From the NCBI GenBank assembly GCA_963737655.1, contig CAVTTN010000002.1, forward strand, positions 3,584,001-3,648,000: a stretch of DNA of 64,000 nucleotides, given 5' to 3'. The DNA is from an uncultured Planctomycetota bacterium. GTDB lineage: Bacteria > Planctomycetota > Planctomycetia > Isosphaerales > Isosphaeraceae. Below the pieces are notes generated by a model. That model searched no databases. It saw nothing but the letters and a program-made list of their open reading frames with translations, and had not been told where the DNA came from. Made by a program: the position numbers and the translations under genes. This document shows positions 340 through 44,297 of this stretch, in pieces (the first letter of the stretch is position 1; every line of letters starts with the position of its first letter).

Positions 340-1485
340 ATGAGACGACTCCTTCCCCGCTTCGCCGCGGCCTCGACGACGTTGCTCGCCGTCCTGATGC
401 CCGCCGCCGGGGCGAACTTCGGCCTCGGCGCCGTCGAGACGGTGTACCTGGCGCCGACCTCGTACTCCTACTCCCCGGTGGTCGCCACCTCCTACTCCTA
501 TTCGCCCGTGGTCACGACCTCGTACTCCTACTCGCCCGTGGTCTCCACGTCGTACGTGACCACGTCCGACGTGCTGGTGCCCACCGCCTACTCGACGGGC
601 TACTCCTACGTCCCCACCGCGTACTCGACGACGGCCTATGTGCCGTCCTACTCGGCGGTTCCGACGGCGGCCGTGGTCTATCCGGGCCTCTATCGCCGGG
701 GCCTCTTCGGTGGCCTCCGGCCGATCCGCCGGCCGGTGTACGAGACGGCCGCGACGTATTCGTACGAGGCGATGCCCACGACGGTCGCCTACCCGACGAC
801 GACCTCGCTCCGCCTGCCCTACGTGGCCACGGCCGCGACGGTGGCCACCGGGTTCTGCAACGAGTCTCCCGTGGCCTTCAACCCGCCGACGGGGCCAAGC
901 GACGGCGCCAGCCCGACGGGCAAGACGGTCGTCAGCTCGCCCAACACCACGAAGGGGACCGATCCGTCCTATAGCGGCCCCCGGCCCGAGACCAACAAGG
1001 CCGCCGGGGCGGTCGGCGAGATGAAGAAGGCGGACGAGGCCAAGCCGGCGGAGTCGAACGAGGGCATCGCCTCCCCTCCCGACGGCCCCGCCCCCGACGT
1101 CCGCGACCTGCCCCCTCCCGAGGACCCCAAGGAGAACCGCAAGGCGTTCCGCCCCAAGTTCACCGAGGTCAAGGCCCGCGAAGTCGCCTCGACGGCCAAC
1201 GTCCTCCGCGGCGAGGTCGTCTCCCAGGCCACCAGCAAGGGGCTGTCGAACGTCCAGGTCGTCTTCAGCGACGTCAAGGGGATCTTTGGCGATCGAAAGA
1301 AGACGACGGACAACACGGGAGCGTTCCAGGTCTACCTGCCGACGGGCGACTGGTCGATCTCGATCGTCGATACCGCGGCGATTGGAGGCCCGAAGGTCCT
1401 GAATGCCGGCCAGGTGACCTCGGCCAATGGGCAATACCTCGAAGAGGACGGCAAGCCGATCTTCGGGCTCCGCATTCACCAGTAG
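340..1485 (+). CDS. Secreted protein with Tyr/Ser/Thr/Val-rich repeats and a C-terminal carboxypeptidase-regulatory-like beta-sandwich
   Basis: ATG 340 gives signal-like MRRLLPRFAAAS...; TSYSYSPVV repeats; C-terminal LRGEVVS...TTDNTGAFQVYLPTGDWSI pattern. Confidence 0.7.
   Translation: MRRLLPRFAAASTTLLAVLMPAAGANFGLGAVETVYLAPTSYSYSPVVATSYSYSPVVTTSYSYSPVVSTSYVTTSDVLVPTAYSTGYSYVPTAYSTTAYVPSYSAVPTAAVVYPGLYRRGLFGGLRPIRRPVYETAATYSYEAMPTTVAYPTTTSLRLPYVATAATVATGFCNESPVAFNPPTGPSDGASPTGKTVVSSPNTTKGTDPSYSGPRPETNKAAGAVGEMKKADEAKPAESNEGIASPPDGPAPDVRDLPPPEDPKENRKAFRPKFTEVKAREVASTANVLRGEVVSQATSKGLSNVQVVFSDVKGIFGDRKKTTDNTGAFQVYLPTGDWSISIVDTAAIGGPKVLNAGQVTSANGQYLEEDGKPIFGLRIHQ
457..546 (+). repeat. Three tandem 30-nt in-frame repeats (TSYSYSPVVx)
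   Basis: acctcgtactcctactccccggtggtcgcc / acctcctactcctattcgcccgtggtcacg / acctcgtactcctactcgcccgtggtctcc. Confidence 0.9.
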
Positions 1486-41408: not shown

Positions 41409-42934
41409 CGCGATTTCGCGGGCCGGCGGGCGTCTTCCTGATCCTCCTCGGGAGCAACGCCTTCTTCTGGCACTCCCGCGACTGGAACGTCTCCAGCCGC
41501 TTGATGCTGACGTATTCGATCGTCGATCGCGGCCAGGTCTCGATCAATGGCCTCGAAGACCACACCCGCGATCGCGCCCGGATCGGTCGAATTTACTATA
41601 GCGACAAGCCGCCAGGGTATTCCGTGTTGGCGGTCCCGGTCTACTGGCTCGCGAAAACGCTCCTGAGGCTTCCGGCCCACCCGCTCCACCGCCGCGGCCC
41701 GGAATTCACCCACTGGCCGAGCGATTACTGGATCACCCTGGGCACCTCCGGCTTGTTGACGAGCCTCACCGGCGCCCTGCTGGCCTCGATGGCCCGTCGT
41801 CTGGGGTGCGGGCCGAGGCGATCGGTGCTCGTGGGCCTCTCCTACGGCCTCTCGACCCCGGCCTGGGTTTACGGGACGCTCGCCTATGGTCATCCGGCAA
41901 CGGCCTTCGGACTGCTCTGGGCGTTCGATCTCGTGAATCAAGCAAGCGGAACGCGTCGGCCGGCGATCACATGCGGGCTGGCGGGGTTCTCGGCGTCGTG
42001 GGCCTCGATCGTGGAGCTTTCGGTCGGTCCCGTCGCCGCATTGATCGGCGGATACCTCCTCGTCCTGGTGATCGGTCGCCGGCTGCCGTCGCGGACGATC
42101 CTCACGTTTGGGGCTGCGGCGGCGCTCCCGGCGCTCGTCCTGGTCGGGTACAACCTGCTGGCGTTCGGATCTCCGTTGGACATGGGCTATTTTCACGAGG
42201 ACCTCGCCGATTTCCGAGGTGTCCATTCGCGGGCAAACCCCCTGGGCCTCCGGGGGATCGACTGGGGACGGGCCGCGGCCTTGCTGTGGGGCGAGCACCG
42301 AGGGTTGCTGTTCTACGCTCCCATCCTGGCGCTGGCCCCGTTCGGATGGATCGTCCTCTTCGCGAGAAGGTTCTGGGGCGTGGCGATCGTCTCGCTCCTG
42401 GCGGTCCTGGCGGTCCTGATGGTGAACCTGAGCTATCCCGAGTGGACCGGCGGCTTCTCGACCGGCCCTCGGCTGCTTCTCCCGGCGATCCCCTTCGCGA
42501 TGCTGGCGGTGGCCGGCTCGCTGGCGGTGGGAGGCCGATTCCTCACGGGCGTCGCGGCAATCCTGGCGGTCGTCGGCTGGGTGATCATCCTGATGTTCCA
42601 GGGATACGGGGGCCGGGTGGCTCCGGCGCCCGACGATCCGAGGATCGAGACCCCCTTTCGATACCCGCTCCGAGGGGTCGTCTGGCCAACCTGGCGCGGC
42701 GATCCCCTGCCGGCGGATCGAGAGGGCGGCCGATTCGATCGAACCCTCGCGAGTCCGGCGGTCTCGCGCTGGAAGTTGCGGGGCGCCTGGCAGGGCCTGG
42801 AGTTCGCCCCCCTGGTCGTTTTCCAGGCGATCGGCGTGATCGCGTTGCTGGTGATGCGTCCCGGACTGGACGCCGGGCCTCCGGACGCTTATCCTGAGAG
42901 AGGGCCAGTTTCGGGCCCGACCCTGACCGGGTAG
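41405..42934 (+). CDS. Polytopic membrane protein, GT-C-like
   Basis: YYSDKPPG, GLLFYAP, WTGGFSTGPRLL; ATGA overlap with the previous gene. Confidence 0.75.
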   Translation: MTRFRGPAGVFLILLGSNAFFWHSRDWNVSSRLMLTYSIVDRGQVSINGLEDHTRDRARIGRIYYSDKPPGYSVLAVPVYWLAKTLLRLPAHPLHRRGPEFTHWPSDYWITLGTSGLLTSLTGALLASMARRLGCGPRRSVLVGLSYGLSTPAWVYGTLAYGHPATAFGLLWAFDLVNQASGTRRPAITCGLAGFSASWASIVELSVGPVAALIGGYLLVLVIGRRLPSRTILTFGAAAALPALVLVGYNLLAFGSPLDMGYFHEDLADFRGVHSRANPLGLRGIDWGRAAALLWGEHRGLLFYAPILALAPFGWIVLFARRFWGVAIVSLLAVLAVLMVNLSYPEWTGGFSTGPRLLLPAIPFAMLAVAGSLAVGGRFLTGVAAILAVVGWVIILMFQGYGGRVAPAPDDPRIETPFRYPLRGVVWPTWRGDPLPADREGGRFDRTLASPAVSRWKLRGAWQGLEFAPLVVFQAIGVIALLVMRPGLDAGPPDAYPERGPVSGPTLTG

Positions 42935-43296
42935 CTCAGTCGGTAGAGCAACGGACTTCAATCGAGAGATCGAATCGGAGCCCCGGGCGGGAAGAACGCG
43001 AACCGCCCGGTGAGCATGCCGCAGTTTGCTGGGACACCCTGAGAGCCCCCGACACCACAACGTCGCCGGCAACGGCAAGCGTGAAGGTCTGAAAAGGCGG
43101 GGGATTGGGCAATCAGCAGGCAAGGGGACGGCGGATCGCCGCCCTCGGCCTCAGAGACTCGACGCGGCACGCCTGCGATGGCGATGGGAGAGTCCAGACT
43201 GCAACGCCCGGAATCGTTCGACGAATCCGGGAGGTCGGCGAGAGCCGATGCGGTAGGTTAATCCGTTGGTCCTGGGTTCGAGTCCCAGCCCGGTCA
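42925..43296 (+). tRNA. tRNA-Lys(UUU), intron-containing (exons 42925-42958 and 43258-43296)
   Basis: Spliced 73-nt cloverleaf: acceptor GACCGGG/CCCGGTC + A73, D arm, anticodon stem ACGGA/TCCGT with loop CTTTTAA, T arm CTGGG-TTCGAGT-CCCAG; CCA not encoded. Confidence 0.88.
42959..43257 (+). ncRNA. Group I intron (299 nt, IC-like) in the tRNA anticodon
   Basis: IGS GGAG 42977-42980; P2 ccgggcgg/ccgcccgg; P3 tgccgc/gcggca; P TTTGCTGGGA, Q AATCAGCAG, R TCAGAGACTC, S GATGGGAGAGTCC; terminal G. Confidence 0.92.
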
Positions 43297-43570: not shown

Positions 43571-43978
43571 CTATTCCTTCGGCGCCTTCTTCTTGCGCCC
43601 CTTCGGCTCGCCCGTGCCGACGACCTGCGCGAGCATCGCCGCGAGCCGCTTCGCGGCGTCGCCCGTTCCCCGGGCGAGCTCTTCCATCTCGGCGAAGCTG
43701 AGCTGCGGGTCCGGGAAGGGGAGTCGGCCTTCGGCTTCCATGGCCGAGGTCTTCAGGACGTAGAGACGCGCCTCCAGGCGGACCTTCACGGAACATTTCT
43801 TCAGCAATTCCAGTTCGCGATAGAACGTTCTGAGTCCAATACCCAGGTCGGAGAGCAGGTCCTCTCGCGACTTCGGGCCTCGGCTGAGGATCACCACGAG
43901 GCGATGGAGCCTCGCCGCCCTCGCCAGGGTGATATGGACCGCCGGCCTCCTGCGGGCGCCTCCGCCGCTCCTCTTCAT
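43571..43978 (-). CDS. HTH-domain protein
   Basis: SREDLLSDLGIGLRTFYRELELL helix-turn-helix, LPFPDPQLS. Confidence 0.75.
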   Translation of the reverse strand: MKRSGGGARRRPAVHITLARAARLHRLVVILSRGPKSREDLLSDLGIGLRTFYRELELLKKCSVKVRLEARLYVLKTSAMEAEGRLPFPDPQLSFAEMEELARGTGDAAKRLAAMLAQVVGTGEPKGRKKKAPKE

Positions 43979-44297
43979 CGCCGTCGCTCCCTCGAACATC
44001 TCATGGGCGGCCGATCTCGGGGTCCTCTGGGGATTATCCACGATTGCATGGTTGCATGTCCAGGGAGGATCGTGCCGATTTTGGGGATTGTTTCAAGGAT
44101 GAGGGGCGTGAGGCCCGATGGAAAGGGGTGACTCTCCTGGGCGGGATGAGCCGCCGCGCCGTCGGAACGGAGCGGAGGCGCTGCCCGGGGGGAAGGCCCT
44201 GGTCCGGAACGGTCGCCTCCGGGCGGTCGGGACGGCCCAGGGGCCTGGTCGGGTCGCATTGCCTCGCGGGACGCCCCGCGCCCTGGGAGCCTGGTCC

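Follow-up and report, generated by a model that had tools for sequence, protein, structure and literature searches.

A group I intron interrupts the anticodon of the only tRNA-Lys(UUU) gene found in an Isosphaeraceae genome and recurs throughout the family

The gene for tRNA-Lys(UUU) in an uncultured planctomycete of the family Isosphaeraceae is split between positions 34 and 35 of the tRNA by a group I intron of 299 nt (42959-43257). Coordinates refer to the window, that is, the whole 64,000-nucleotide stretch of contig CAVTTN010000002.1 that was analysed. The identification, made earlier in the preliminary description, is confirmed by ARAGORN on the spliced form, by the register of 23 homologs (22 from the family and the window copy) and by covariation. 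The reading that we favour, with a probability of roughly 0.9, is that the intron is a self-splicing ribozyme with an IB-type core, lodged between U34 and U35 of the sole tRNA-Lys(UUU) and needed for reading AAA, and that it was gained once, inherited vertically and precisely lost at least once. The features of the locus are as follows.

42925-42958, forward strand: 5' exon of tRNA-Lys(UUU), positions 1-34, ending in U34, which is U(-1) (ARAGORN on the spliced form; U(-1) in 23/23 homologs)
42959-43257, forward strand: group I intron, 299 nt, without ORF (homolog register and covariation; its ends coincide with the circle joint seen in relatives' RNA contigs)
42956-42980, forward strand: P1, exon CUU with the internal guide sequence (IGS) GAG at 42978-42980, U.G at the 5' splice site (U42958.G42978), variable P1 extension hairpin (pairs invariant in 23/23; +1 pair CG in 17, UG in 5, other in 1)
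42983-43010, forward strand: P2 hairpin with a conserved A-rich loop of 12 nt (84% paired; alignment of the stem base poor)
43017-43169, forward strand: P3, 43017-43022 with 43164-43169 (paired in 100% of cells; one pair changes on both sides)
43027-43118, forward strand: P4 (43027-43032/43113-43118), P5 and, at 43046-43103, a P5a/P5b extension that carries a GNRA loop and an A-rich bulge (43089-43095); P5c was not seen (8/8 P5a pairs change on both sides; 77-79% identity to phage introns, one of them annotated Intron_gpI)
43119-43150, forward strand: P6, P6a and P6b (P6 100% paired; 6/8 pairs of P6a/b change on both sides)
43154-43195, forward strand: P7 (43154-43160/43190-43195) with bulged A43155 and the putative guanosine-binding pair G43156-C43194, and P8 (43170-43183); no P7.1/P7.2 (last P7 pair CG in 12, AU in 10, UA in 1; 28 nt between the P7 strands)
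43198-43257, forward strand: P9 domain with P9.0 (43198-43202/43250-43254), a variable hairpin, a conserved GNRA hairpin (43235-43248) and omega-G 43257 (P9.0 pair UA in 10, GC in 8, AU in 1, CG in 1, other in 3; omega-G in 23/23)
43258-43296, forward strand: 3' exon of tRNA-Lys(UUU), positions 35-73, discriminator A73, CCA not encoded (ARAGORN; junction identical in the intronless orthologs L204-L211)

Excision of 42959-43257 yields a tRNA that ARAGORN calls as Lys(ttt) at 42925-43296, with a UUU anticodon and A73. The preliminary description gave this register alone; it holds, but an alternative was overlooked, since a shift by one base (33/34, intron 42958-43256) likewise leaves U and G at the intron ends and creates a tRNA-Asn(GUU) that ARAGORN accepts, and ARAGORN with introns enabled labels homolog L116 as Asn. 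The homologs decide for Lys. At 34/35, U(-1) and omega-G are present in 23/23, whereas the base preceding omega-G varies and U/G ends at 33/34 are found in just 10/23. The split gene has G1 and A73, in contrast to the U1/G73 of the genome's own intronless Asn(GUU), and the eight intronless orthologs (L204-L211), which have the same exons, are read as Lys(ttt), the same tRNA type. The circle junction in RNA contigs described below also fits 34/35 and not 33/34. On the terminal-base counts and the position of this junction the Asn(GUU) register was rejected, and an intron at 33/34 must be regarded as extremely improbable.

The group I motifs named in the preliminary description, namely P1, P3, P4, the R and S segments that pair as P7, P2, P8, a hairpin in the P9 domain (of GNRA type) and G43257, all lie at the places given there, and the extended P5 with an A-rich bulge is present as claimed. 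The same is true for the lack of a homing gene: no homing endonuclease ORF was found in the window intron, whose longest ATG-ORF has 26 codons, and the 23 homologs are 280-336 nt long. The U.G pair at the 5' splice site (23/23) is accompanied by a P3-P7 pseudoknot core with a bulged A and a G-C site, by P4-P6 and by omega-G; the pair G43156-C43194 is taken to be the guanosine-binding pair from established group I anatomy. In the 23-row alignment, 95.6% of the cells of a 77-pair fold are paired and 26 pairs show double-sided changes. None of 500 shuffles matched this pairing and slid controls paired at 32-41%, but the fold was drawn by hand on the window copy and the 23 rows are kin, which favours the fold over the controls, and the kinship inflates the shuffle test. 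P3, P4, P6 and P7 are 100% paired, with both-sided changes in P3 and P7. The informative changes are located in P3, the last P7 pair, P8, P5a, P6a/b and P9.0, while no change is seen in P4, in P5 or in most of P7, which therefore contribute nothing to covariation. Single-sequence folding of the window copy gave a z of only -2.44, and a promoter and terminator scan at the locus found nothing.

The Rfam group I model RF00028 did not match the window copy, either at E<=1 on 6 kb or at E<=10 on 421 nt. The preliminary description had treated such an outcome as evidence against the intron, yet the intron is real. Four of six homologs obtained scores (L163 70.1 bits, L033 44.6, L116 44.0 and L057 38.1), one of them (L163) above the cut-off of 50 bits, and a further locus, L250, scored 48.7 bits. 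The model also missed L045 (the Singulisphaera acidiphila locus) and L080, as well as the Lys introns of genomes G532, G533, G024 and G388. Since homologs score, and since the P4-P5 domain matches an annotated phage Intron_gpI (E 9e-8), the miss is best seen as a limit of sensitivity. ARAGORN with introns enabled on the whole genome produced 305 calls, most of them spurious.

The sequence comparisons point to an IB-type core. For family Lys introns the identities in P4/Q/R were 0.76/0.85/0.91 with Patescibacteria rRNA introns and 0.78/0.85/0.92 with cox1 introns, as against 0.47/0.62/0.71 with cyanobacterial Leu(UAA) introns and 0.62/0.73/0.83 with Ile2/Phe introns; this comparison left out loci that did not parse (8/17 Leu, 1/9 rRNA, 2/5 cox1), and one truncated row pulls the rRNA mean of segment B downwards. 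The insertion sites of the rRNA introns and the hosts of the cox1 introns are those that we presume from their flanks. A motif tree separated Ile2/Phe from all Lys rows (99/97), although it covers 49 columns, contains no Leu rows and includes one mis-picked Ile2 S motif. Subgroup IC3 is contradicted by the P5 extension and by a core that lies nearer to the rRNA/cox1 introns than to either Leu or Ile2 introns. Subgroup IA is contradicted as well: P7.1/P7.2 between P7 and P3 is reportedly an IA feature (as Michel and Westhof are said to have described), whereas here 28 nt separate the P7 strands, compared with 58-77 in the phage and Bacillus introns. IB core motifs together with the lack of P7.1/P7.2 and of P2.1 would place the intron in IB, probably near IB4, the rRNA introns compared having presumed sites. 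Introns at LSU/1931 are listed as IB4 in the available part of PMC6125680.

Three known groups of introns resemble the Lys intron in different parts. It has in common with the cyanobacterial Leu(UAA) intron the 34/35 site after CUU, a 3-bp P1 on the IGS GAG, a similar P2 base and P9.0, and the lack of an ORF; it differs in its Lys(UUU) host, its IB-type P4/P6, the P5a/b extension with A-rich bulge, a shorter P8, and a core identity of 0.47-0.71. IB-type rRNA introns and fungal cox1 introns are 0.76-0.92 identical to it in P4/Q/R/S and likewise have no P7.1/P7.2 and a short span from P7 to P7', while the present intron has a tRNA host, a Leu-like shell and no homing ORF (sites and hosts of the introns compared being presumed). 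The IA-like ribonucleotide-reductase introns of phages and Bacillus (for example Intron_gpI in OQ848593.1) match its P4-P5a/b at 77-79% over about 99 nt, but their P7 strands lie 58-77 nt apart and their R motif differs. IA-like introns with this P4-P5a/b domain were also seen at L035, L055 and L069 (Bacillus and kin), two of which lie in what we take, from its motif, to be a ribonucleotide-reductase-like frame.

How these parts came together bears on the origin. The preliminary description had linked the intron to the Leu(UAA) intron by reverse splicing into a look-alike anticodon arm. The likeness of site and shell (IGS GAGCC, J2/3 GUG, P9.0) stands: Leptolyngbya Leu(UAA) has the same 34/35 site and the same exon end, GAGCC is invariant in 23/23 homologs and also found in Leu introns, and GUG occurs at a fixed J2/3 offset in 9/9 Leu introns, 7/11 family Lys introns and 4/5 other Lys/Val/mRNA introns, but in none of the rRNA (0/7), cox1 (0/3) or Ile2/Phe (0/5) introns. 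The core does not follow, being nearer to 23S rRNA/cox1 introns (0.76-0.92 versus 0.47-0.71), so the Lys intron is not explained by the Leu intron simply having jumped through reverse splicing; in all three of P4, Q and R the identity to Leu is below that to rRNA introns, and Leu introns are without the P5 extension. Direct descent from a cyanobacterial IC3 Leu(UAA) intron is therefore unlikely. A mosaic, in which an IB-type core and P5 extension sit within a Leu(UAA)-type P1/P2/P9.0 shell, would account for the contrast between core and shell in the segment identities, for the CC after the IGS that is retained in L163 and L033 although their exons cannot pair with it, and for a P5 extension common to IA-like phage/Bacillus introns with inserts of P7.1/7.2 size. 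Yet the common shell amounts to about a dozen bases, some of which the exon dictates, the same picture could come from convergence or from an ancient shared ancestor at 34/35, and the motif tree is limited to 49 columns without Leu rows, so the mosaic can be put forward as a tentative possibility, somewhat short of even odds.

The intron is no isolated planctomycete oddity; it turned out to be family-wide and to belong to a class spread over several phyla, with kin in Patescibacteria, Chloroflexota and mRNA. A full-length homolog is present in 22/24 sampled Isosphaeraceae genomes, matches in other families being only exon-sized, and the intron/3' exon junction is found in 99/121 family genomes (43/47 of the good ones). 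Ten of the 121 show the intronless pattern. These are 7/8 genomes in genus g325, the genome G509, and a pair of intron carriers, in which one match is no tRNA and the other is a divergent Lys(ttt). One of the 99 junction-bearing genomes has an ARAGORN-valid intronless Lys(UUU), and 14/121 genomes match neither exact pattern. In an RpoB tree of 42 rows (a quick one-gene tree with SH-aLRT support only), g325 and G509 are nested among intron carriers, so that the intron looks ancestral and the intronless lineages look like losses. There appears to have been one clear precise loss and possibly a second, in G509, whose contig may be mis-binned.

A pattern scan of GTDB gave at least 117 loci with at least 33 full Lys introns among them; 25 of the full Lys introns listed are named, comprising 24 Planctomycetota records (Isosphaeraceae, including Singulisphaera acidiphila DSM 18658) and one Terriglobia MAG. 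The Isosphaeraceae-type Lys intron in the record named Terriglobia (L074) may reflect mis-binning or transfer. By BLAST of the core, one of 400 other genomes of the phylum (G388) had a Lys intron with a shorter P5 extension, a search that scored two candidates per genome and is therefore weak for absence. Kin of the intron also occur in Lys(UUU) of Patescibacteria. In the phylum to which a Magasanikbacteria MAG belongs, 401 genomes gave 15 matches, the best of them being the Lys intron of G562; L163 is a Lys intron in a low-GC metagenome contig. In a further pattern search, G531 had an intronless Lys-like match, the matches in G532 and G388 were not tRNA-like, and G533 and G562 had none. The same intron family with the P5 extension was also observed at 34/35 of a tRNA-Val(UAC) in a Chloroflexota MAG (L033, 384-733). 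No further case was found among 300 other Chloroflexota genomes (query genome only, 1/301). A close relative of this Val intron, at about 230-530 of metagenome contig L189, apparently interrupts a protein-coding frame. A plasmid search returned one P4-P5 match, the others being chance.

Evidence at the RNA level comes from relatives. With the L045 locus as query (intron 669..351, minus strand), four of 24 listed runs were examined. In run X4, one contig spans 356-669 and then continues at 351, and in run X1, position 647 is joined to 351 through 23 letters that equal an intron 5' end (the same letters begin the intron of L013). In both runs, which belong to two studies, omega-G directly precedes base +1 of the intron, and no G has been added at the joint. 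The joint is that of a full-length circle with its ends exactly at the predicted splice sites, observed in RNA contigs of relatives (about 95-99% alike; X4 depth 3.7) from libraries that hold long contigs and may include DNA. Contig depths were in the thousands inside the intron and 70-300 on long contigs through the exons, figures that are not a ranking of expression. According to the available part of PMC6274462, full-length circles can form when the 3' splice site is hydrolysed, without exon ligation; the circle would thus indicate catalysis at these ends, not splicing. The omega-G-to-+1 joint is common to the full-length circles of nuclear rRNA group I introns (PMC6274462, as far as available), the present case being a bacterial tRNA intron. 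In contrast, Anabaena circles carry an added G (same source, same part), and Azoarcus forms shortened L-3 circles (PMC13168695, available part).

No ligated-exon contig was present in the four runs examined. It may be asked, then, whether the ribozyme depends on a host protein, or is a poor splicer that mostly forms circles, which would leave little mature tRNA-Lys(UUU) and part of the AAA codons to be read by another route. In favour of this, circles were seen without ligated exons, P1 has just 3-4 bp with no clear P10, and AAA is rare. However, the exons are near-invariant over the family, and the lack of ligated exons is weakened by the fact that RNA-seq libraries usually lose mature tRNAs. 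Nor need the short P1 be a hindrance, as the Leu(UAA) intron reportedly splices with the same short P1 (Zaug is said to have shown this in 1993). We consider poor or protein-dependent splicing improbable.

Under the self-splicing reading, the pre-tRNA would fold P1 by placing exon CUU on the IGS GAG with U.G at the splice site, and free guanosine bound in P7 would cut 3' of U34. Omega-G43257, positioned by P9.0, would then occupy the guanosine site, and exon ligation would restore the loop CU-UUU-AA that is required for reading AAA, presumably all independently of protein. The most likely role of the P5a/b extension, A-rich bulge included, is to stabilise the fold. The full-length circles may be a side or follow-on reaction, and circularisation is a candidate route of spread between sites that end in CUU. 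A single gain at or before the family root, vertical inheritance without a homing gene and precise loss in at least one lineage would give the present distribution.

The need for splicing is suggested by the tRNA set of the genome (3 contigs, 87.7% complete). The preliminary description had called for a check for an intronless tRNA-Lys(UUU), and none was found in this 87.7% complete assembly, which carries one copy of the Lys(UUU) intron and an intronless Lys(CUU); AAA decoding should accordingly need splicing. AAA makes up about 10% of the 44424 Lys codons in 2302 long ORFs (4523 AAA versus 39901 AAG). As C34 of Lys(CUU) cannot read AAA by established wobble rules and AAA is used, the ribozyme should be essential. 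Most likely, the Isosphaeraceae, a soil-dwelling family, must excise the intron before they can read AAA codons.

Several other features of the tRNA genes were observed. The ARAGORN calls for the genome include no intact fMet, Val(GAC) or Ser(CGA) tRNA, which may reflect incompleteness. At G000:C2:6624238-6624310, adjoining the rpoB region and Trp, is a tRNA that was called as Ile(UAU) and whose loop is unusual (C37). A second group I intron (L031, G000:C2:3573885-3574147) lies about 10 kb before the window; it is IC3-like, scores 48.9 bits and sits at 36/37 of a CAU tRNA of Ile2 type, with orthologs in G532, G533 and G024 (58.6-70.1 bits). Another IC3-like intron (L246 in G562, 63.9 bits) is apparently located at 33/34 of tRNA-Phe(GAA). 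The 3' end of tRNA-Lys is duplicated 2.5-13 kb away at L216, L217, L218, L219 and L220, with tyrosine integrases (PF00589) between the copies in L216-L219. In the intron carriers (L216, L217, L218 and L220) the repeat begins within the intron and takes in 6 to about 25 nt of its tail; in intronless G509 (L219) it begins in the anticodon stem. Several 3' tRNA halves in the genome resemble island remnants. Facing the tRNA is a 156-aa ORF without Pfam match (window 43571-44041, reverse strand), homologs of which adjoin tRNA-Lys in 7/31 other loci tested, both intron-bearing and intronless.

As to earlier descriptions, four classical classes of bacterial tRNA introns, all IC3, were raised computationally from 4 to 21 by Williams 2020 (10.1101/2020.01.27.920355), whose text names Leu.3Ug, Arg.5Ug, fMet.2Ug and Ile2.5Ug (all IC3) and Leu.3Cg and gives no subgroup for the new classes. 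In the same naming (10.1101/2020.01.27.920355) the present intron would be Lys.3Ug, which keeps the U(-1)/omega-G rule. The odds are about even that Lys.3Ug is among the 17 new classes of Williams 2020, as RF00028 finds Lys copies of the Patescibacteria type and misses that of S. acidiphila. Inserts of 22-49 nt in tRNA-Lys(CTT) (PMC5733544, available part) also have a tRNA-Lys host, but Lys(CTT), and are too short for a ribozyme core, and hence are a different element. No tRNA-Lys(UUU) or Isosphaeraceae group I intron was named in the literature titles and abstract openings listed, a scope outside which most subscription papers fall, and the Lys(UUU) intron is unnamed in the available parts of PMC3984707, PMC8450103, PMC11835236, PMC13168695, PMC11270868, PMC11809585, PMC12641178 and PMC13578239. 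Within this scope we found no earlier description of the IB-type core, of family-wide fixation in the sole Lys(UUU) or of the natural full-length circles; the host class may already be catalogued. The broadest view is a speculative one, and doubtful as a whole: an undescribed tRNA-ribozyme lineage, largely missed by Rfam, with an IB core and P5a/b in a Leu(UAA)-type shell, which would reside in the sole AAA-reading tRNA of the family, form natural circles, have moved through them among CUU-ending 34/35 sites (Lys, Val) and mRNA across phyla, and have led island integrases to re-tune their attachment sites to the intron tail.

The intron accounts for the 'missing' tRNA-Lys(UUU) and the false Asn calls in these genomes, and supplies a ribozyme that is compact, rich in GC and apparently able to close into a circle from end to end. 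Full-length circles have so far been characterised mainly for introns of nuclear rRNA, and the Lys intron makes it possible to ask whether in bacteria they serve mobility. As a ribozyme outside IC3 that is fixed in the only tRNA-Lys(UUU) of a family some of whose members are in culture, it would be a test case for the adaptation of an rRNA-type intron to an anticodon loop, and for whether translation of AAA in the Isosphaeraceae is gated by self-splicing.
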